From: Escherichia phage vB_EcoM_IME392
Reading direction: 5' to 3' (one strand)
DNA length: 64,000 nt
Sequence record: MH719082.1
The notes below the pieces were generated by a model. That model saw only the letters and a program-made list of their open reading frames with translations, did not search any database and was not told the origin of the DNA. Position 1 is the first letter of the stretch; every line of letters begins with the position of its first letter. A program made the position numbers and the translations under genes. Shown one piece after another: positions 1 to 28,064 of this stretch.

Positions 1-931
1 TCACATCCAGAGTTGATCCTGGTTGGAACTCTCGACCAACATCTTCCATTACGTATTCTAGAATACTGTGATCGCTATTATAACGAGAAGCAGCATCTTC
101 AAGAGTAGCGATGTAATGCTGGAAGTAGGTACGGATCTTATACCAGGAATTAAGTGATCCGAGATCAATCGTAGTTACCGGAGCTTCATTAATGTCGTCA
201 ACATAAGCTCGGATATTACTTACCTGCTTCTTGATGTTCGACACTTCCGGATACCAGTGGAGATCATCCGTCATCACCACATAGTTGCCCATATCTACTT
301 TGAGCATAGTTGCGATGATTTCCTGGATGATCGTGAACTCCACCAGATTAACGTTAGTCAATCCCCAGATTAGATCATTACTACGGTTGAATACCGTGCA
401 GTCCAGACCACCATTACGGTACTTAAACGATAGAGCAATGTTGCAGATCATATCTGCGGTATTGATGCTGCCGATGCTGTTTACCAAACCTACATCAGAA
501 TCACGGCTGGGATCGTGAATAGTAGCCACGCACTTACGGTTACCCAGGTCAGAACGGAGGCGGTCTGTTACAGTCTGGAGTTGATCGTAGTTATACAGAC
601 GCTCACCGTAAGCACCACGCCAGGTAACCATATCATCGCTAAACATCTTAGCGCGAGGAACCATAATCGACATCCAGTTATCGATTGCATAGCCACCAGA
701 CAGTACCCACAATACTTCCCCCATAATTCCGAGGATATTGTCTTTACGTTCTGGATGAGCCATCCAACGATTAATCGGATTACTTAACTCAACTACAGCA
801 TGACCGATGGATACTACCGCCGAAGAGTTAACAGAAGTTCTGGACTTCTGCAACTCACCAGCCTTATCCATAGTATTGATGCTGTTAACCAGGATTTCAG
901 TATTACTGTTACCGCGAATTACCGAGATCAT
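1..931 (-). CDS. Thymidylate-synthase-superfamily enzyme, probable deoxypyrimidylate hydroxymethylase (C-terminus lies beyond window edge)
   Basis: Not in the ORF track because there is no stop in the window. My translation of the minus strand from ATG 931-929 stays open for 310 codons (MISVIRGNSNTEILV...). TS-fold motifs: WRGAYGERLY, NRKCVATIHDPSRD, Cys segment ADMICNIALSFKY (Cys codon 445-443), RSNDLIWGLTNVN, TDDLHWY. The start overlaps the kinase stop as ATGA (928-931). Confidence 0.75.
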   Translation of the reverse strand, partial: MISVIRGNSNTEILVNSINTMDKAGELQKSRTSVNSSAVVSIGHAVVELSNPINRWMAHPERKDNILGIMGEVLWVLSGGYAIDNWMSIMVPRAKMFSDDMVTWRGAYGERLYNYDQLQTVTDRLRSDLGNRKCVATIHDPSRDSDVGLVNSIGSINTADMICNIALSFKYRNGGLDCTVFNRSNDLIWGLTNVNLVEFTIIQEIIATMLKVDMGNYVVMTDDLHWYPEVSNIKKQVSNIRAYVDDINEAPVTTIDLGSLNSWYKIRTYFQHYIATLEDAASRYNSDHSILEYVMEDVGREFQPGSTLDV

Positions 932-1650
932 TTAGAGTCCTTACGCACTGAATCAATAGACTTAACTGCAGAGGACAGTAACTCCAGACGGGCCTCCTGA
1001 GGGATCATACCAGATGGCTCATTCAGGATCATAATACCTTTACCAGTATTAGTAAAACGAGCTGTGATTGATCCAGGATACACCGGATGATTCAGAGTTA
1101 CAGAATTACACAACGCAGCACCGAATCGCTCCTCGTAGGCACGCATAGTTACCTTAAGGAGAGTAGAACTGACTGCTACAGAGTATTCCGGATCAACAAC
1201 ACGGAAGTTATTGTCCTCAATACTCTTATCCTTCGTATTGAAGAACAGAGTCATGTTATAATAATCAATAGACTCGTTACTGAGACGTAATGCCTCATCA
1301 CGAGCTTCCTGGCTAGCAAACATACTGTTATGCAGCAGGAAGTAAACGTACGAATCGAATACCGCACGATCACTGACGATCAACTCGCCACGATTGTAGG
1401 CATCCTTGAACATCTGAGTTCGCTGACGAATAAGACGCAGCTGGAACTCTACCGCTTCCATAGGATCTTCCACAGCTAAGCGCAGAATATCCATATGGGA
1501 TGTTACTCCCAGAGGAAGATGGTCACGAGTCTGTACTGCACGGAAGGTACATTCGGTTGATTCTTCCCAGCCTTTAGCCAGAGTAGATTTACCGGTACCC
1601 TGCGCACCAGACATAATTACACTGTAGCCTGGGATACTATAGTCTCTCAT
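928..1650 (-). CDS. P-loop kinase of deoxynucleoside/dNMP-kinase type (candidate hm-dNMP kinase or 5-hmdU DNA kinase)
   Basis: Walker A SGAQGTGKSTLAKG. IVSDRAVFDSYVYF resembles the ERS..D..F motif of dNK/TMPK-type kinases. I prefer ATG at 1650 (GGAGAGAATA-ATG) over the TTG at 1662 used by the track. Confidence 0.6.
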   Translation of the reverse strand: MRDYSIPGYSVIMSGAQGTGKSTLAKGWEESTECTFRAVQTRDHLPLGVTSHMDILRLAVEDPMEAVEFQLRLIRQRTQMFKDAYNRGELIVSDRAVFDSYVYFLLHNSMFASQEARDEALRLSNESIDYYNMTLFFNTKDKSIEDNNFRVVDPEYSVAVSSTLLKVTMRAYEERFGAALCNSVTLNHPVYPGSITARFTNTGKGIMILNEPSGMIPQEARLELLSSAVKSIDSVRKDSK

Positions 1651-3849: not shown

Positions 3850-4872
3850 GTTAGCTGATGCCCAGCTCAGCCAGTTATCGTTGAGATCGGTCAGGTAGGA
3901 GTAATCCTTATTCAGACCGAATACAGTACGGTTAGTTCCGTCGAACTTCATTATACCAGCGCCAGGAGCTCTGATGATTGCATCTTCCGTAGCCAGACAA
4001 TATTCTTTCAAGTATTCCTGGATGTTGGGACGAATACGACGGAAGGAACTATCTGCCGAGTCATAGTGGAACATATCTGCGCAGTGCCACTGTACGTAGG
4101 ATTTATCCGGACGGCTGAGTAGTTCATTACGGGTAACCATATCTTTAGGAGAATATCCCAGCTTAGCTACAGTGACTTCGTGAATACCTCCACCATTAGA
4201 CGAAGTATCCATCAGCCAGTTTTCGTCCCAGTAGAACGAAGTACCAGTACCAGTTACCTGTCCAACCTTCCAGCCCATCGCCATACCTTTAAACAACAGG
4301 TAGCAATCTTCTCCTACGGTCAACTGTTGGAAGGTTATATCGAACAGCCAGAACATCTTCTCACTGGTCTTGACCATGATACCGAGGTCAGTGGCCGGAG
4401 CAGTGTTATTATGTGACTGACGATCGCATAGTTCAACAATCTTGTAGTTACGATTCTTGAAGCTACGGACGAACGCCATCTCAAACTCAGATCCCTCGAA
4501 GTCTATAACGGAACGGTCCAGATGGAAAATATTATCTGCGAACCAGACATCATCATCCACGAAGTAGCAGATGTCTGGACACCAGTTCTGATCCTCCATT
4601 AAAATCCATGCCTTATCAAGAGCATGAGCTCGGATTCTTCCGATTACCGGATTATCGTACTTAGGACGATGCCAGAAATTAAACTGCTCGTCCCCACCGA
4701 ACTGCTCTTCCAGAACTGCCTTATCTTCTTCGGAGGCATCCTGCATAAAGTAGAAGAAACGATACTCGATAGAGTCGTCAGTCTTCTTAGCATCTTTGAA
4801 CGACTGAATCTGACGGAGTACCGACTTCATACGATGATAGGTTGGGATGATAAAAGCCACTTTGGTAGTCAT
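3838..4872 (-). CDS. Family-2-type (GT-A) glycosyltransferase
   Basis: N-terminal VAFIIPTYHRMKSV (the GT2 signature IPTYNR-like) and a DXD-like YFVDDDVWF. Only 6 nt separate it from the upstream deacetylase gene. Confidence 0.7.
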   Translation of the reverse strand: MTTKVAFIIPTYHRMKSVLRQIQSFKDAKKTDDSIEYRFFYFMQDASEEDKAVLEEQFGGDEQFNFWHRPKYDNPVIGRIRAHALDKAWILMEDQNWCPDICYFVDDDVWFADNIFHLDRSVIDFEGSEFEMAFVRSFKNRNYKIVELCDRQSHNNTAPATDLGIMVKTSEKMFWLFDITFQQLTVGEDCYLLFKGMAMGWKVGQVTGTGTSFYWDENWLMDTSSNGGGIHEVTVAKLGYSPKDMVTRNELLSRPDKSYVQWHCADMFHYDSADSSFRRIRPNIQEYLKEYCLATEDAIIRAPGAGIMKFDGTNRTVFGLNKDYSYLTDLNDNWLSWASANSLL

Positions 4873-4878
4873 ATTTAT

Positions 4879-5490
4879 TTATCCAATTTGACGAACTAAG
4901 CGAAACCCTTCGGCGTACGGCCACTGGGCAGAATATCCACGTAAGGTGGCTAGAGCTAAGATACTCTGGGTATCTCGGTCTGACTTAATCTGGGAGTCGA
5001 ATCGTCCCATAGCCTGGCACTTACACTCAATATCGTCCTTATTCAGACGCTCGAAGTAATTAGGTTCCATCTGACCGAACTGGGTCAGGGACTCGGCATA
5101 CTCATATTCCAGGATAAGCCAGTTATACGCTCGGAGAGCTACACGAGCAGCATGATTAACTAGTTGATGGTCCTGGTGTAGGCTACTGAACGGAATATAG
5201 ACTACATCCGGCCTGATTTTAGCAACATAGTCCGCAATATCCTTAGCCAATTGCGGAATATCCTTCTGAGTCATACCATCGCCTGTGGAGGCATCGTTAC
5301 GCTCCAGGCAATGTACTTCTTTGATATTCGGATAGACACCGAATGCTGCTTCGGCTTCACCACGACGGGTCTCGTCCGGAGCAGTTACTTCGAGGATGAA
5401 AAATTGGTCGTCGCGGAATTTGCTCATAATACCTCCGCAACCCAGAATCTCATCATCGTGATGTGGGCTGATAATCAATCGTGACTTCAT
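4879..5490 (-). CDS. PIG-L/LmbE-family N-acetylglucosaminyl deacetylase
   Basis: LIISPHHDDEILGCGG (PIG-L motif HPDDE) and a later HQDHQLV metal-binding-type motif. RBS GAGGA lies before ATG 5490. Confidence 0.8.
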   Translation of the reverse strand: MKSRLIISPHHDDEILGCGGIMSKFRDDQFFILEVTAPDETRRGEAEAAFGVYPNIKEVHCLERNDASTGDGMTQKDIPQLAKDIADYVAKIRPDVVYIPFSSLHQDHQLVNHAARVALRAYNWLILEYEYAESLTQFGQMEPNYFERLNKDDIECKCQAMGRFDSQIKSDRDTQSILALATLRGYSAQWPYAEGFRLVRQIG

Positions 5491-5557: not shown

Positions 5558-5588
5558 TTAACAGCCTTTTAGGTCATCAAACAGGAGG
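5558..5588 (-). promoter_or_regulatory. Conserved promoter-like motif, copy 3
   Basis: Minus strand reads CCTCCTGTTTGATGACCTAAAAGGCTGTTAA followed by GGT. It overlaps the 3' end of the transporter gene and lies upstream of the 5515-5541 hairpin. Confidence 0.5.
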
Positions 5589-6959
5589 AGTTTCCTTAGC
5601 CAAGAATACTTTAGGTACAAAGATCTTGAGGAACCCGAATAGAATACACAATACCCCAATCAGTACCGGAACAGCCGATACAGCTACCAGAGTCTTCGTT
5701 ACAGTTACTACGTCACCACCTGCCCAGTTAAGTGCAGCAGCAACTACACCCATGCTTACAATCCAGAATACACGAGTTCTAGGAGCGGTCATGGACTCTA
5801 CCGTAATACCTGCTGAGTCATGACCTGTAATAAAGAACAGAATCACAGACACGAGGGTAATTACTGAGAATATCCATCCGCCTGGGAAATTAGCCAGAAG
5901 CTGGAAGATATCCTGAGCACCATGTTGCAAACCGGCTACACCGAATACGGTAAACCATACGTTACTGATAATGGTAGGGAACAGTACACATCCCAGGATC
6001 AGTTCGCGAATAGTACGGCCGTAAGAGATACGTGCCACAAACGCTCCGACGAATAATGCCCAACCTACCCAGGCTGCATAGTAAGCATAAGGCCAGCTAG
6101 CCAGCCATTGCTTCTCTTCAGCAGTACTGCCAATGTTTACCGACATAGGAATAATCTGGAGCAGATAGCTGCCAGAATAGGTGATGGTCTTCCAGAGGTA
6201 TTCAAAGAATGTACCACTTACAGCAACGAATGCCATAATAGATAGAGCTACGATTACATTATATCTGGATAACCACTTAACCCCACGATCGACACCAGTT
6301 ACGGCACTAAGTACAGTGCCCAGAGTCAGGAGTGCGATAATGGTGTAAGGACCAACATCCACACCAAGGAACTCTTTAAATCCAGAACTGATCGGGCCTA
6401 CTGCGTAGACGAACGACAGGGTTAAGCCTATGATGGTCGAGAAGAGTAAGCTTATCGTATTAAGGTTATTCAGAGTTCGGGACTTGAATAACTGATTAAG
6501 CGGACGGTCTTCACCACGTACATGCAGTAAGTACCCGAATGCCACCCCTACGACTGCATACACAGCCCATGCATTAAGTCCCCAGTCAAAGAAGGTAGTT
6601 ACCATATTCTGACGTTCGGACATACCCTCCTGATGATGGTACATAGGTTCGAGTACGCCATAATAAATCATGGATACACCCATACCGGTACTAAACATCA
6701 TAGAGTAATAGGTAAAGCGATTGTATTTCGGAGTACCTTTACCCAGCTTAATGTTACCATGTTTGCTGAATACAAAGAATGCCAGGAACGCCAGGAAGAT
6801 CAGCGAAGACCAGGTAAATATGAATCCATACTGAGATATAAATACAGACTTACTCCAGTCCATTACAGCACCAAACTGGGTGGGAGCAAACATAATGGCG
6901 AGTACAATACCCACCGTTACCAGCACCGTCCCCCAGGTAACTACCTTTGAATCGGACAT
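5577..6959 (-). CDS. BCCT-family (betaine/carnitine/choline-type) secondary transporter
   Basis: 460 aa, hydrophobic throughout with about 11-12 predicted helices by eye. FSKHGNIKLGKGTPKYNRFTYYSMMFSTGMGVSMIYYGVLEP matches the BCCT N-terminal block (RLG...F..SWFAMLFAAGMGIGL.FWGVAEP). WPYAYYAAWVGWALFVGAFVARISYGRTIRE matches the BCCT signature W.....W..W.PFVG.FIARIS.GRTIRE. Confidence 0.75.
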   Translation of the reverse strand: MSDSKVVTWGTVLVTVGIVLAIMFAPTQFGAVMDWSKSVFISQYGFIFTWSSLIFLAFLAFFVFSKHGNIKLGKGTPKYNRFTYYSMMFSTGMGVSMIYYGVLEPMYHHQEGMSERQNMVTTFFDWGLNAWAVYAVVGVAFGYLLHVRGEDRPLNQLFKSRTLNNLNTISLLFSTIIGLTLSFVYAVGPISSGFKEFLGVDVGPYTIIALLTLGTVLSAVTGVDRGVKWLSRYNVIVALSIMAFVAVSGTFFEYLWKTITYSGSYLLQIIPMSVNIGSTAEEKQWLASWPYAYYAAWVGWALFVGAFVARISYGRTIRELILGCVLFPTIISNVWFTVFGVAGLQHGAQDIFQLLANFPGGWIFSVITLVSVILFFITGHDSAGITVESMTAPRTRVFWIVSMGVVAAALNWAGGDVVTVTKTLVAVSAVPVLIGVLCILFGFLKIFVPKVFLAKETPPV

Positions 6960-24348: not shown

Positions 24349-25140
24349 TCAGTACCGAGGATCAGTATCCTGATAGTCGCGAATTAGGTCATAGACGAGC
24401 ACATCCAGACGAGTAGCATCTTCACGTTTCATGCGGGTAGGTCTGTACATATGGATACATACACAATGCTTAGACCAGACCTTAGCAGTCTGACGCTCCG
24501 TAAGTTCTTTACGGTCGATAATGTACTTCTCGAATGCGTGATAAGAGATAGGCTTTGATACTTCGACATGCTGGCACATATCGAGGAACTGCGGGTAGTC
24601 GTCAGTTAAGAAGCGACTGAATACGTCCTGGTAATAAGAGTAGTTAGGGAATTTACCACCCTGCTCCAGAGATAACGCATGAGTCTCGATCTCCTTCAAC
24701 ATCAGAGCCATAAATTCCTGATTATTGCTGGGAGAGGTCCACATGTTTATCTCGCAGTAATCTAACCGAGGGGAATAAACACGTACCTGAGTCTCGTGAG
24801 GAGTATACGTTTCGTGAGGGCTTCTGATAAAGAGAGTATCAGCATCTACATAGGAGTAACCACGAAGATCCATCATTACCTGAATCTTGAGTCGCAGATA
24901 GTCACATACAGAGGCCATCTTAGCCTTAGTTTTCAGGATATTATACGCCTTCTCCATAATAGGATCTCTGGCGAATAAATCCTGGATCATAACGCAACGG
25001 CAACCTTCGATAATATTCTCTTCGTTATCGATCACCAGTACATGATCATTAGGTCCGTATTTCTGTAAGGACTTAATGCATTCCCGAACATGGATAGGCA
25101 TTTTGGGTCCTACCCAAAGCTGGAAATAATTCTGACTCAT
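24349..25140 (-). CDS. GT32-like (DXD sugar-binding) glycosyltransferase
   Basis: FQLWVGPKMP (GT32 N-terminal IWIG..lP), ASVCDYLRLKI (SD.lRy block), YSYVDADTLF (DxD). RBS GAGGT lies before ATG 25140. Confidence 0.55.
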   Translation of the reverse strand: MSQNYFQLWVGPKMPIHVRECIKSLQKYGPNDHVLVIDNEENIIEGCRCVMIQDLFARDPIMEKAYNILKTKAKMASVCDYLRLKIQVMMDLRGYSYVDADTLFIRSPHETYTPHETQVRVYSPRLDYCEINMWTSPSNNQEFMALMLKEIETHALSLEQGGKFPNYSYYQDVFSRFLTDDYPQFLDMCQHVEVSKPISYHAFEKYIIDRKELTERQTAKVWSKHCVCIHMYRPTRMKREDATRLDVLVYDLIRDYQDTDPRY

Positions 25141-25775
25141 AGTTACCTCTATGTTATTTATTTTAAACTGGATAGGGACTAATAAAGTAAATAGTAATTA
25201 AATACTTATTAATCTTCCTCTTATCTAATGCTAAGGGAAGCGTACTCGAGGAGTACAGAAGCTTAGCGAAGAGCGGAGTAACCATTTGATTTAAACAGTC
25301 ACCGTAGAGAGCGAAGGAGTCGCGCCCGCTTGAGGCGGCGCGACCTCCGCTTCACCAATCCTACCGGATGGACGCCTGCGACCACCCGAGCCTACCCCTG
25401 CCTCACTCACTAAAGCCACTTCGGGCTTTACCTCGTTCCGCTACGCGATACGCAGGCAGATAGCTACACTAAGTCCCCTGGAGATGGCTAGTAAGTATCC
25501 GTTACCAGACCATGTCCAACCTAACATTGACGAAGCCAGGGACTAGGCACTCCTCGCCAATAAGCTACATTAGGATTTATGTCCGTATTTCGAAGATAGG
25601 CCGATCGGGGAGACTATGCATTCATCTCTGCTCAACCAGGAAGCACCGATTAGGGTAAATACCCAAACTATCTTCTTAATGTCACTCCTCCCAGACCGCT
25701 TCGGGACTTAGCTTAAGTCTTATCCGAATAATCTGGCATCTACGACGGACCGTAGTGTATGGAGCGTACTGCAAT
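25141..25775 (-). ncRNA. Candidate ~630-nt structured non-coding RNA or giant 5' leader
   Basis: Immediately downstream (minus strand) of motif copy 10. No ORF >=60 aa in any frame. Locally GC-rich: 43/60 GC at 25321-25380 versus 23/60 in the neighbouring coding line 25021-25080. Multiple hairpins and long-range complementarities (see findings). Confidence 0.35.
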
Positions 25776-25806
25776 TTAACAGCCTTTTGACTCATCAAAA
25801 GAGCGT
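25776..25806 (-). promoter_or_regulatory. Conserved promoter-like motif, copy 10
   Basis: Minus strand reads ACGCTCTTTTGATGAGTCAAAAGGCTGTTAA followed by ATT. It contains a perfect 7-bp dyad CTTTTGA/TCAAAAG. Confidence 0.55.
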
Positions 25807-25923
25807 AATTAGGGCCCGATTATTTCACTTAGCTTCCATCCGTTCGGGCCAACACGGATCGTACATGACGTTACCGTCGTTTCAAGTCACTCGGATTATT
25901 AGTTCCCGGTGCTCATATAAAGA

Positions 25924-25952
25924 TGGTGCCACGTAGGGAATCGAACCCTATA
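25924..25952 (-). pseudogene. tRNA-like 3' fragment (T-arm + acceptor 3' strand + CCA)
   Basis: Minus strand reads TAGGGTTCGATTCCCTACGTGGCACCA, a canonical T-arm. No matching 5' acceptor strand, D-arm or 7-nt anticodon loop could be folded from the upstream ~100 nt. Confidence 0.3.
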
Positions 25953-26065
25953 TCAGGTAAACGTCTAGCCGTAGACTGCTGAGTGCCCTCAGCTACCCTA
26001 TCACTTAACCGAACCATCGGCAAATCTTTCACAGATACTTACACGTGATTTTCTCTGATCGGATC

Positions 26066-26092
26066 TGGTGATTCCTCGGAGTCGAACCGAGG
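26066..26092 (-). pseudogene. tRNA-like 3' fragment (T-arm + ACCA-like end)
   Basis: Minus strand reads CCTCGGTTCGACTCCGAGGAATCACCA. It starts only about 12 nt after the CCA of tRNA-Met, so there is no room for a 5' half. Confidence 0.3.
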
Positions 26093-26104
26093 AGTGGCAT
26101 AATA

Positions 26105-26180
26105 TGGTGGTCCATACTGGTTTCGAACCAGTGACCAAGCGATTATGAGTCGCCTGCTCTCACCACTGAGCTAATGGACC
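26105..26180 (-). tRNA. tRNA with CAU anticodon (elongator Met, or Ile2 if lysidinylated)
   Basis: Hand-folded cloverleaf: GGTCCAT-TA-GCTC-AGTGGTGA-GAGC-A-GGCGA-CTCATAA-TCGCT-TGGTC-ACTGG-TTCGAAA-CCAGT-ATGGACC-A-CCA. All stems are perfect. G1-C72, so not an initiator. Confidence 0.9.
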
Positions 26181-26649
26181 GAACTAGATTGAGCGATAGG
26201 CTATGGAGTACCTTACCATCGGGCGTCTTTCGCTAAATAGCCCATCATGGGCTACCGCAGGGGCATGACACCTATCGCTCAAATTGGTCGGGATCGTGGC
26301 CCACGTCGGAGGATTTGCCAAACTCCCCATTATCATAGCCTAAGCTATCCAGACGGCCGTAACTACCCTGCTCCGGTACATGCGATAATGGGGACGTATC
26401 CAAAGATGTGGAGATCCCGTTAAAATATCTTAAGCTTCTCGCTATGTGTGTCCTACACTCTACCCTTGCGGGGTACCGGAGGATGAATCCGAACTTCCTG
26501 CGACCACACACGGAGGCCCTTGCAGACGTGCTTTATTGCGCTCATCCTGGCATAGCGAGAACTTAAGATATCTATTGATGCGCACCAGATAAGTATTTCC
26601 CAAGCCATGAACTTAATCTGGGATCTTGACCTATCCAGTGCGACTTATG
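26181..26649 (-). ncRNA. 469-nt structured inter-tRNA spacer (processing substrate or independent ncRNA)
   Basis: 12-bp perfect long-range helix 26189-26200 / 26271-26282. 21-bp helix with one bulged C, 26425-26446 / 26551-26571. Nested hairpins such as tagccca-tca-tgggcta at 26238-26254. Confidence 0.35.
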
Positions 26650-26725
26650 TGGTACTCCCTACTGGATTCGAACCAGTGACCGTCGGTTTAGAAGACCGAT
26701 GCTCTATCCTCTGAGCTAAGGGAGC
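26650..26725 (-). tRNA. tRNA-Arg (UCU)
   Basis: Hand-folded cloverleaf: GCTCCCT-TA-GCTC-AGAGGATA-GAGC-A-TCGGT-CTTCTAA-ACCGA-CGGTC-ACTGG-TTCGAAT-CCAGT-AGGGAGT-A-CCA. G1-U72 wobble, other stems perfect. Reads the rare AGA codon. Confidence 0.9.
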
Positions 26726-26735
26726 TTAACTTTAG

Positions 26736-26802
26736 GATGACCTCTTAGCTTACCATCGCGAAAGCTACATGGAGTGTAGTTAACGTGAACTAAGAGGTCA
26801 TC
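26736..26802 (-). other. 13-bp-stem hairpin immediately 5' of tRNA-Arg
   Basis: gatgacctcttag (26736-26748) pairs with ctaagaggtcatc (26790-26802). The loop holds two small hairpins and shares cttaccatcg and atggagt strings with the element 5' of tRNA-Met. Confidence 0.5.
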
Positions 26803-26812
26803 ATAAAATCAG

Positions 26813-26905
26813 TTACTGACGAATTATACTTTCCCAACCATCCACATATACTGCGTTGGCTATGTAAAGAATGCAGAACAAGCCAACGATTAAAGGATTA
26901 ATCAT
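26813..26905 (-). CDS. Possible 30-aa hydrophobic micro-protein
   Basis: Below the track cutoff. Minus strand reads GGAGAAGTACA-ATG ATT AAT CCT..., giving MINPLIVGLFCILYIANAVYVDGWESIIRQ*. Single TM-like segment with a good SD. Confidence 0.3.
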   Translation of the reverse strand: MINPLIVGLFCILYIANAVYVDGWESIIRQ

Positions 26906-27302
26906 TGTACTTCTCCATTTAATTAAGTTACCTGCTTACTGTTACAGGGACGCCGTTCGTCGCGCCAGATTACCAATTGGCGTATTAAGCCAATCTCGCC
27001 AACCGCGTAACGCCATTGGCTGGTATCACATAGGCTTGTAGCCCTCAGTCAACCTATCCTGAGGATGAAGATCAGATACTCTCTAACGGCGGGATTGATA
27101 GTCCCAGAGTACGATCTCTTTGCCATTCTCGTATGACCTAGGAGACGACTGCCCTGGTTAAGGAGACCAGACAGCTGATATGGTTTAGTTTATTTTTAAT
27201 TTGAGTCCCACTCATACCTTACAGACTCAAGCACTGCAGACCACCATGAAGCCGACTCGTACGCTAACAGTCGACACCACGGATCCATGAAACTCCAACA
27301 AT

Positions 27303-27333
27303 TTAACAGCCTTTCGACTCATCAAAAGAGTGT
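27303..27333 (-). promoter_or_regulatory. Conserved promoter-like motif, copy 11
   Basis: Minus strand reads ACACTCTTTTGATGAGTCGAAAGGCTGTTAA followed by ATT. No ORF follows for about 400 nt. Confidence 0.5.
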
Positions 27334-27485
27334 TAAATTGTCCGCTCCCTATCACCGAGCACTGTGATGATGGGAAAATAGGGAGCGAAGCGATTCCTAA
27401 GTTTTATCTCTTCTCTAAGTGATTAACCGTTACATACGATGTACCTTCTCGAAAGAATTAAGCCGGTATTGGCACTTCAGACACT

Positions 27486-27516
27486 TTAACAGCCTTTCGA
27501 CCGTACAAAAGAGCGG
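27486..27516 (-). promoter_or_regulatory. Conserved promoter-like motif, copy 12
   Basis: Minus strand reads CCGCTCTTTTGTACGGTCGAAAGGCTGTTAA followed by AGT. The 31-mer is identical to copy 15. Confidence 0.5.
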
Positions 27517-27521
27517 CGTAA

Positions 27522-28064
27522 TTAGACGCTCGCCTCAGGCACTTTAACAGCCTTTGGACGTGTAAAAAGAGCGGGATTATACCATTCTGGGGTACGATAG
27601 AAAGAGATCTTACGACCCTCTTTCTTCCAGAAGTAGAATTTATCGTTGAGGTAGTTACGGTACTTCTCGTAGACTGTCTCACCAGGAGCACCTGATACAC
27701 ATGCATACGGAGTCATATCGGTCTCTGGACCTACTACCAGATTTTTAGGTAGTGCCACAAGACGGGATAAAATTTCTTCGGTTGCATGGAGCCGTCCGGT
27801 ACGTTCAAAGAATAGCATGCATAAATAGCTTGCCAAGTCACGAACGAAGTTGTAGTTACCTGACGATTCACGAACCCACTTAGCACACGGATGATTAACA
27901 TGCGTCTGCTTATAAATACCCTCGATAGCGTTTTCGCCATCCAGAACATGATGAGCAGTAGATAATAACTGAGCACACTCAATAATCATTTTATTCTGGT
28001 GCATAGGCATACAGTGGTCCATAGCACATTCTAACGCATCTTCGTGAGTACGGAAAATATTCAC
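27522..28064 (-). CDS. Conserved hypothetical 180-aa protein (THVNHPCAKW motif)
   Basis: GTG start with AGGAGTAATTATT upstream. The KMIIECAQLLSTAHH...YKQTHVNHPCAKWVRES block is one I recall seeing in unrelated phages, function unknown. The last ~17 codons overlap motif copy 13. Confidence 0.55.
   Translation of the reverse strand: MNIFRTHEDALECAMDHCMPMHQNKMIIECAQLLSTAHHVLDGENAIEGIYKQTHVNHPCAKWVRESSGNYNFVRDLASYLCMLFFERTGRLHATEEILSRLVALPKNLVVGPETDMTPYACVSGAPGETVYEKYRNYLNDKFYFWKKEGRKISFYRTPEWYNPALFTRPKAVKVPEASV
27544..27574 (-). promoter_or_regulatory. Conserved promoter-like motif, copy 13
   Basis: Minus strand reads CCGCTCTTTTTACACGTCCAAAGGCTGTTAA followed by AGT. It lies 58 nt upstream of copy 12. 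Confidence 0.5.

Follow-up and report, generated by a model that had tools for sequence, protein, structure and literature searches.

The stretch of DNA analysed here (the window) comprises 64,000 nt of Escherichia phage vB_EcoM_IME392 and contains two transfer RNA (tRNA) genes separated by a spacer at 26181-26649. These are tRNA-Arg (anticodon TCT, 26650-26725) and tRNA-Met (anticodon CAT, 26105-26180), both called by ARAGORN and matched by the Rfam tRNA model with 71.3 and 70.3 bits, respectively. Both genes are on the minus strand, and the RNA of the spacer therefore reads from 26649 to 26181. In the left 29 kb of the window all open reading frames (ORFs) of at least 100 aa are on the minus strand. 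None of them falls within 25141-27521, so the tRNA pair sits inside a 2.4-kb block without long ORFs, which also contains a large tRNA-like RNA, called M5 below, and other structured elements. Neither ARAGORN nor the Rfam model RF00005, even at E <= 10, calls a tRNA beyond the two annotated ones. Rfam 15 was scanned with the whole window at gathering score and with 25100-27600 at E <= 10; these scans returned the two tRNAs and chance hits only, leaving the RNA modules described below unmatched. No intrinsic terminator, i.e. a G+C-rich hairpin followed by a U run, is predicted in 25000-27700. The closest record is Escherichia phage EP_H11 (OP688485.1, 111 kb, unclassified), with 93.9% identity across 12 kb around the spacer, and apart from it no close relative was found in the phage collection searched, which holds 50,697 records. 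Scans of IMG/VR with the two flanking proteins (263 aa and 180 aa) and a promoter-like repeat of this phage also gave no close relatives. Seven further contigs were obtained through the neighbouring 263-aa ORF, from its protein cluster at 90% identity.

The initial annotation of the spacer described two long-range helices, and every pairing that it described is found in the sequence where it was placed. In the first helix, TTGAGCGATAGG (26189-26200) pairs with CCTATCGCTCAA (26271-26282) at all 12 positions. The second helix, of 21 bp, is formed by ATATCTTAAG (26425-26434) with CTTAAGATAT (26562-26571) and by TTCTCGCTATG (26436-26446) with CATAGCGAGAA (26551-26561), the single bulged C being position 26435. 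An extra perfect helix of 11 bp, pairing 26324-26334 with 26384-26394, had gone unmentioned. Both of the described helices are real and above chance expectation: among 300 dinucleotide-shuffled spacers, none has a perfect inverted repeat of 12, the longest repeat per shuffle having a mode of 7-8 and a maximum of 11. For the fold of the whole spacer, z is -4.95 (minus strand) or -4.64 (plus strand), and when single modules are folded, each has a z between -2.2 and -5.0. Read on the tRNA-sense strand, the spacer is made up of four separately folding RNA modules, D1 to D4. An independent structured RNA had been offered as an alternative explanation of the spacer. This stands for the 12-bp helix, which is the closing helix of a conserved motif, and fails for the spacer as one RNA, as the region is four modules with independent histories rather than a single spacer RNA.

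The module with the 12-bp helix, D4 (26189-26282, minus strand), is a three-way junction of about 94 nt, defined by an alignment (A1) of ten sequences and the model R1. In the proposed structure, the closing helix P1 has 12 bp, P2 has 6 bp and P3 has 4 bp. P1 is followed by the junction J1/2 (GUCAUGCCYCUGCG), the variable hairpin P2, the string UUAGCGAAAGAC and then P3, a 4-bp stem (NNGG/CCNN) with the 9-nt loop UAAGGUACU. In alignment A1, 39 columns are invariant and 92.9% of the cells are paired, compared with 29-44% in slid controls. Changes on both sides are seen in 17 of the 22 pairs, including 11 of the 12 in P1, and none of the shuffles attains the observed values. The sequence of P1 is unrelated between lineages and its pairing is retained; with compensatory changes in all but one of its pairs, the 12-bp helix survives a check of conservation and compensation across phages. 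It is the junctions and not the helix that hold the invariant nucleotides. G-U wobble pairs are confined to the tRNA-sense strand, which fixes the transcribed (RNA-sense) strand. Model R1 gives the window 116.3 bits (E = 3.6e-25) and seven other loci 76-114 bits.

D4 is found in phages that are not closely related. Using blastn with the spacer as query, 26292-26188 was linked to Erwinia phage phiEaP8 (Schitoviridae), where D4 lies directly 3' of tRNA-Tyr. A second search round added Pseudomonas phage nickie, where it lies about 10 nt upstream of tRNA-Arg. The strict pattern GTCATGCCYCTGCG-N(4-32)-TAGCGAAAGAC matched three metagenomic contigs, with D4 directly after tRNA-Asn in L032, directly after tRNA-Ile in L034 and about 180 nt upstream of tRNA-Met in L033. 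In IMG/VR the same pattern matched the same two isolates only, and among 185,579 bacterial and archaeal genomes it had no match. Five matches of a relaxed pattern in bacterial genomes are ascribed to chance, and each of them fails model R1. All eight D4 loci are in or beside a phage tRNA cluster and on the tRNA strand; in the window, D4 is 8 nt upstream of tRNA-Met. Such positions could mean that the modules are cis-acting leaders or trailers that help the adjacent tRNAs to fold, to be processed or to remain stable and are not products themselves, and indeed each module abuts a tRNA or another module, D4 being a short distance upstream of a tRNA in the window and in nickie. However, D4 has different neighbours in each lineage (tRNAs for Tyr, Asn, Ile, Met or Arg, or on either side another module), and in the related contig L017 tRNA-Arg is separated from tRNA-Met by 4 nt and no module. 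The 39 invariant bases also exceed the needs of a generic spacer, and we regard a cis-acting role as improbable.

Two observations on the conserved single-stranded parts can be added. Several conserved loops contain palindromes of 4-6 nt (CAUG, GUAC), and UCCGGA or UCUAGA replaces P2 in nickie and L033. In addition, J1/2 (26260-26270, minus strand) reads AUG CCY CUG CGN in all members, the sole variable base being a synonymous third position, and in the window, phiEaP8 and L032 a stop directly follows this frame (MPLR*). As there is no conserved Shine-Dalgarno sequence, the short reading frame is probably a coincidence.

Modules D1 and D3 recur in other phage families as well. D1 (26575-26649, minus strand; minimum free energy (MFE) fold with z = -4.0) starts 5 nt past the CCA of tRNA-Arg and is a 14-bp hairpin with a conserved apical part of about 30 nt, GUCAAGAnYCCCAGAUUnAGkUCAUGGCUUG. 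It has homologues in Vi01-like Ackermannviridae (L020:2001-2076), directly 3' of tRNA-Tyr, and in L034, after tRNA-Asn. The helix P1 of D1 is 89.7% paired, compared with 24-53% in slid controls, and has both-side changes in five pairs. D3 (26286-26421, minus strand) is a rod-shaped RNA of about 135 nt that includes the perfect 11-bp helix and ends in a 7-bp acceptor-like stem (CGGGAUC/GAUCCCG) followed by ACCA. Apart from the close relatives EP_H11 and L010, homologues are found in the T4-like Yersinia phage JC221 (L019:1976-2121), after tRNA-Gly, and in Salmonella phage SenALZ1 (L036:2477-2619), between tRNAs. Of the 43 pairs in the RNAalifold consensus of D3, 17 show compensatory changes. 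The compensated pairs include the terminal acceptor-like stem, and the tail is ACCA, or GUACA in JC221. Model R2 scores the D3 of the window with 161 bits; short exact D3 patterns gave only chance matches within coding regions in IMG/VR. By these comparisons, D1 and D3 are members of two more recurrent RNA families beside D4. It is worth noting that a run of four G in the 3' arm of the 11-bp helix of D3 is six G long in EP_H11 and 17 G long in L010 (about 4955-4975), so that the homopolymer is hypervariable or else the difference is an artefact of assembly.

The module with the 21-bp helix, D2 (26425-26571, minus strand; inverted repeats I10 and I15), is of a different nature. Its basal helix with the one bulged C encloses a branched domain of 105 nt, and the MFE fold has z = -5.0. 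D2 is carried only by the window and the contigs L013, L014 and L016, being identical in the first two of these contigs and different by one base in the third, and it is missing from EP_H11, L010/L011 and L017. No homologue was found in the 50,697 phage records, and the spacer is unmatched in E. coli genomes. The arm of D2 occurs as a single copy within the window. Judged by its occurrence, D2 is a lineage-specific module, and since its carriers are near-identical, covariation can neither support nor refute the 21-bp helix.

The initial annotation considered a helix of about 21 bp long enough for an RNase III substrate and suggested that the helices may be processing sites of the tRNA precursor. 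In this case, cleavage within the long double-stranded helices would part the two tRNAs from each other and set free the RNA that the helices enclose, as is the case for rRNA operons and T7 mRNAs. D2 resembles RNase III processing hairpins (T7 R1.1-type, rRNA operon stalks) in that a long-range helix of about 21 bp encloses a structured RNA within a polycistronic precursor. The helix spans about two helical turns with one bulge, and no terminator follows it. T4 species 1 RNA is reportedly an RNase III substrate in vitro. Among the D4 members, two have a long closing helix as well, 19 bp in L033 and 27 bp in nickie (with 89% complementarity). In the others, however, P1 is short, with 12 bp in the window and L034, 13-14 bp in phiEaP8 and L032, and a length within 12-14 bp in EP_H11. 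A spread from 12 to 27 bp points away from a conserved RNase III signal, and the suggestion is at odds with the 12-bp helix: P1 in this phage is below the roughly 20 bp (two turns) of an RNase III substrate and its length varies too much, and D4 conserves its junctions and not this helix. Furthermore, close relatives without D2 keep both tRNAs, so tRNA maturation can do without D2. RNase III stalks are therefore an unlikely explanation for the modules in general, and RNase III processing is possible with D2 as its only candidate site.

The relatives differ in which modules they carry. Contigs L013, L014 and L016 have the architecture of the window with 98% identity. EP_H11 retains D3 and D4, has a small hairpin where D1 and D2 sit, and has additional tRNAs. 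In L010 and L011, the position corresponding to 26931 is joined directly to 26430, and they are without D1, D2, M5, tRNA-Arg and a hairpin upstream of tRNA-Arg called element B. In L017 the whole spacer is missing. The modules thus behave as cassettes that close relatives gain and lose. Among EP_H11-like phages, D3 and D4 have few base differences and the adjacent tRNA-Met diverges much more. Two of these few differences are compensatory, a change from U-A to C-G in the 12-bp helix and another from U-A to C-G at the end of the 11-bp helix.

A mosaic region with sharp indel junctions, as seen here, might also be expected if the modules were decayed tRNA genes or recombination remnants or, in a variant of this idea, if the region held a DNA element such as a miniature inverted-repeat transposable element (MITE) with 21-bp terminal inverted repeats. 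D3 and M5 keep tRNA-like ends, and ATAT flanks D2 on both sides; the latter is no evidence for a target-site duplication, because ATAT is its own reverse complement. Against decay stand the compensatory substitutions and the invariant junctions, which are maintained across phages of different families, and the stronger conservation of D3 and D4 compared with the neighbouring tRNA-Met among EP_H11-like phages. An identification of D2 as a MITE was rejected, given its single copy in the window, the lack of a homologue in the phage collection and the lack of a match of the spacer in E. coli genomes. Remnants of either kind are highly unlikely.

Protein coding is a further explanation that has to be considered for the spacer, namely translation of a 79-aa ORF (26272-26511, minus strand) or of other short ORFs. 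The 79-aa ORF does exist in the window, but it starts with GTG and has no purine-rich Shine-Dalgarno sequence upstream. Its codons 1 to about 27 fall in D2, in sequence that is missing from EP_H11 and L010. Inside the ORF, EP_H11 has indels of +1 and +2, which correspond to both sides of one compensated pair in a helix, and in L010 the G run is longer by 13. The annotation of EP_H11 has no ORF at this position. With a start in D2 that is absent from relatives, and with frame-shifting indels, the ORF is not conserved, and the chance that it or other short ORFs are translated seems close to negligible. In L017, a 210-aa ORF without a Pfam match (691-1323, plus strand) lies between element B and tRNA-Arg and overlaps the first bases of the tRNA; it may be a mobile gene like those in the tRNA regions of T4 (segB) and T5.

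How the block is transcribed may be judged from a 35-nt promoter-like repeat with the consensus CCGCUCUUUUGnnnnGUCGAAAGGCUGUUAAAgUGU, also given as CCGCTCTTTTGnnnnGTCGAAAGGCTGTTAAAgTGT. There are 14 copies within 1682-29184, on the minus strand only and upstream of minus-strand genes, most of which are preceded by one, where 0.05 copies of the repeat core would be expected by chance. One copy (27302-27336, minus strand) is upstream of the RNA block, and further copies are at 27485-27519 and 25775-25809. The distribution suggests that the repeat is probably a phage-specific promoter and the copy at 27302-27336 the putative start of the transcript with the modules. The repeat also bears on the possibility that the block is one large ornate RNA with embedded tRNAs, the modules being its pieces. 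GOLLD and ROOL are phage or prophage RNAs of unknown function that are typically found beside tRNA islands, and the GOLLD linker sometimes holds tRNAs (PMC12286853). The 2.4-kb block without long ORFs, whose outer parts (27515-26931 and 25928-25141) are conserved and whose tRNA-holding middle is variable, would suit such an RNA, and the palindromes in several conserved loops could mediate oligomer contacts. However, GOLLD and ROOL each consist of one RNA of 600-800 nt, which assembles into homo-oligomeric cages, in contrast to the independent units of 70-150 nt seen here. Their Rfam models have no match in 25100-27600 at E <= 10 or in the whole window at gathering score. The modules are found singly and in varied combinations in other phages, and the repeat copy at 25775-25809 splits the block. 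A single ornate RNA is thus very improbable.

The closest parallel is provided by T4, where two non-tRNA RNAs, RNAC and RNAD (species 1 and 2), are found directly after tRNA-Arg in the tRNA cluster; their roles are still unknown (PMC3014915). Like the modules, they are structured RNAs (about 120-140 nt) on the tRNA strand, directly 3' of a tRNA, from which they are separated by a few A/U-rich bases after the CCA. The 3' end of RNAD is CACCA, that of RNAC lies close to a T-arm-like hairpin, and D3 and M5 in the window have similar tRNA-like ends. Unlike the T4 RNAs, D4 and D1 are without a tRNA-like end, and T4 has two such RNAs whereas the window has at least five such modules. Homology to rnaC and rnaD was not detected: models R1 and R2 have no match in the T4 tRNA region (L021), and blastn gave no link. 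We favour, with moderate confidence, the explanation that the modules are passengers, small RNAs that are transcribed and processed together with the tRNAs in the same way as RNAC and RNAD. It builds on what was observed here, i.e. the strand, the folds, the covariation, the cassette behaviour, the restriction to phage tRNA clusters and the lack of predicted terminators.

In such a scenario, the block would be read through from the phage-specific promoter-like repeat, giving one or two polycistronic precursors, and the tRNA-processing nucleases of the host would excise the modules from the poly-tRNA precursor. RNase P would generate the 5' end of every downstream tRNA and probably also cut at the acceptor-like stem with ACCA of D3 and M5, and RNase E-type cuts would be made in the short A/U-rich linkers after CCA. 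Linkers of the CCA-AAUU type recur between modules in all clusters examined (T4, JC221, Vi01, SenALZ1, phiEaP8 and nickie). The long closing helices would let each module fold independently and would protect its ends. Once released, the modules would remain as small stable RNAs with a function in trans, like RNAC and RNAD. In D4, the invariance of the single-stranded junctions hints at a conserved partner from the host or the phage, probably one connected with tRNA or translation biology.

Several points weigh against this reading. We infer the processing by RNase P and RNase E from the anatomy of the region and from the established maturation of E. coli tRNAs. D4 has neither a CCA tail nor a consistent neighbour, and how its ends would be formed is therefore a guess. 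One P2 pair of D4 varies as C-G, U-U and C-A, and D2 is without any comparative support. Each family is small, comprising 3 to 7 independent lineages, and part of the conservation could come from recent horizontal transfer and not from long purifying selection. Finally, the 35-nt repeat could be an RNA hairpin or a processing signal instead of a promoter; its conserved halves CUCUUUU and GAAAGG could pair around a variable loop.

A more far-reaching view, which we hold to be possible but doubtful, is that D4 represents a new phage-specific class of functional RNA with a defined biochemical activity, moving as a cassette among the tRNA islands of unrelated phages, with D1 and D3 as further classes. 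The activity could then consist in binding a conserved host factor or a small molecule, or D4 could be a decoy against tRNA-targeting defences; self-cleavage, or a self-assembly like that of ROOL and GOLLD through the palindromic loops, could be envisaged too. Another comparison is with the Y RNAs (YrlA), which have tRNA-like domains, are substrates of RNase P and of CCA addition, and are in some cases phage-encoded (PMC4201824). The tRNA-like ends of M5 and D3 are a likeness to these RNAs. Y RNAs adjoin a gene for Ro60 (a TROVE-domain protein), and an identification as a Y RNA/Ro60 system was rejected, with no TROVE domain in the 20 proteins scanned (a part of the genome) and no Rfam match. 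With tRNAs themselves, D3 and M5 have only the acceptor-like stem and ACCA in common, and M5 additionally has T-arm-like hairpins.

Full-text literature searches with the invariant D4 strings gave unrelated papers only, and searches for RNAs of phage tRNA clusters gave nothing describing these motifs. The kind of element, non-tRNA RNAs in phage tRNA clusters, is already known, and the three families D1, D3 and D4 appear to be undescribed. Phage tRNA clusters are normally annotated as tRNAs and spacers, and here the spacers are conserved and covarying RNA families, common to phages otherwise without nucleotide similarity. The role of non-tRNA RNAs in phage tRNA operons, a question open since the 1970s for RNAC and RNAD, therefore seems to be a general one. 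D4, with its 39 invariant bases, its 94-nt fold and its occurrence in cultivable E. coli, Erwinia and Pseudomonas phages, offers a compact entry point for experiments. On a practical level, the modules explain contig breaks in the block of some assemblies (L011, L012) and spurious calls of short ORFs in such regions. More unannotated modules closed by helices of 12-19 bp are seen in the other tRNA clusters with D4 (L032:4505-4594, plus strand; L032:5037-5370; L018:1612-1709; L033:9900-9985).

Other elements of the block are structured as well. M5 (25924-26099, minus strand), described from its sequence and MFE fold, follows tRNA-Met directly and is a tRNA-like RNA of about 175 nt. Its closing stem, GCCAC/GUGGC, precedes ACCA, and M5 has two T-arm-like hairpins with the loops UUCGACU and UUCGAUU; it is called by neither Rfam nor ARAGORN, and it is conserved in EP_H11 and absent from L010, L011 and L017. 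Element B (26733-26805, minus strand; inverted repeat I2, MFE z = -6.8) lies upstream of tRNA-Arg and is a hairpin closed by a 13-bp stem. The initial annotation pointed out that the elements directly upstream of the two tRNAs share two strings, which is correct: the 64-kb window has exactly two copies of CTTACCATCG (26212 and 26749), and ATGGAGT is found in both elements. In terms of the D4 fold, element B holds both halves of the P3 element, ACUCCAU and GAUGGUAAG, in reversed order, and its CUUUCGC is the exact complement of the invariant GCGAAAG of D4. This could be a permuted or pseudoknotted version. The 3' arm of element B is replaced in EP_H11, and as a member of the D4 family it was rejected, being unmatched by model R1.

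Unusual tRNA-like genes were also seen in other phages. One is conserved in EP_H11 (L001, about 4662-4746, minus strand) and Vi01 (L020:2168-2255, plus strand); it has normal acceptor, D and T arms and an anticodon region expanded to GGAAAGYUUCGAGAGAACAAGG, and it is not called by ARAGORN. Another, in L032, has a 4-base anticodon (gtac) according to ARAGORN. The RNA block of the window contains a 30-aa hydrophobic ORF, MINPLIVGLFCILYIANAVYVDGWESIIRQ (26813-26905, minus strand), with a GGAG Shine-Dalgarno sequence. In L016 there is an in-frame insertion of 9 nt near its 3' end, which suggests that it is a real gene for a small membrane protein. Blastn with the outer parts of the block (25141-25928 and 26726-27300) found EP_H11 and one weak 45-nt match only. 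The latter involves 25812-25856, just upstream of the repeat copy at 25775-25809, and intergenic DNA of Klebsiella and Proteus myoviruses (E = 0.02-0.8). Between this repeat copy and the 263-aa ORF, which is glycosyltransferase-like, lie about 630 nt (25141-25770, minus strand) that are conserved, partly G+C-rich and free of ORFs. Further away, at 5577-6959 (minus strand), the window carries a full-length gene for a betaine/carnitine/choline transporter (BCCT; Pfam E = 1e-92), an unusual auxiliary gene for a phage.

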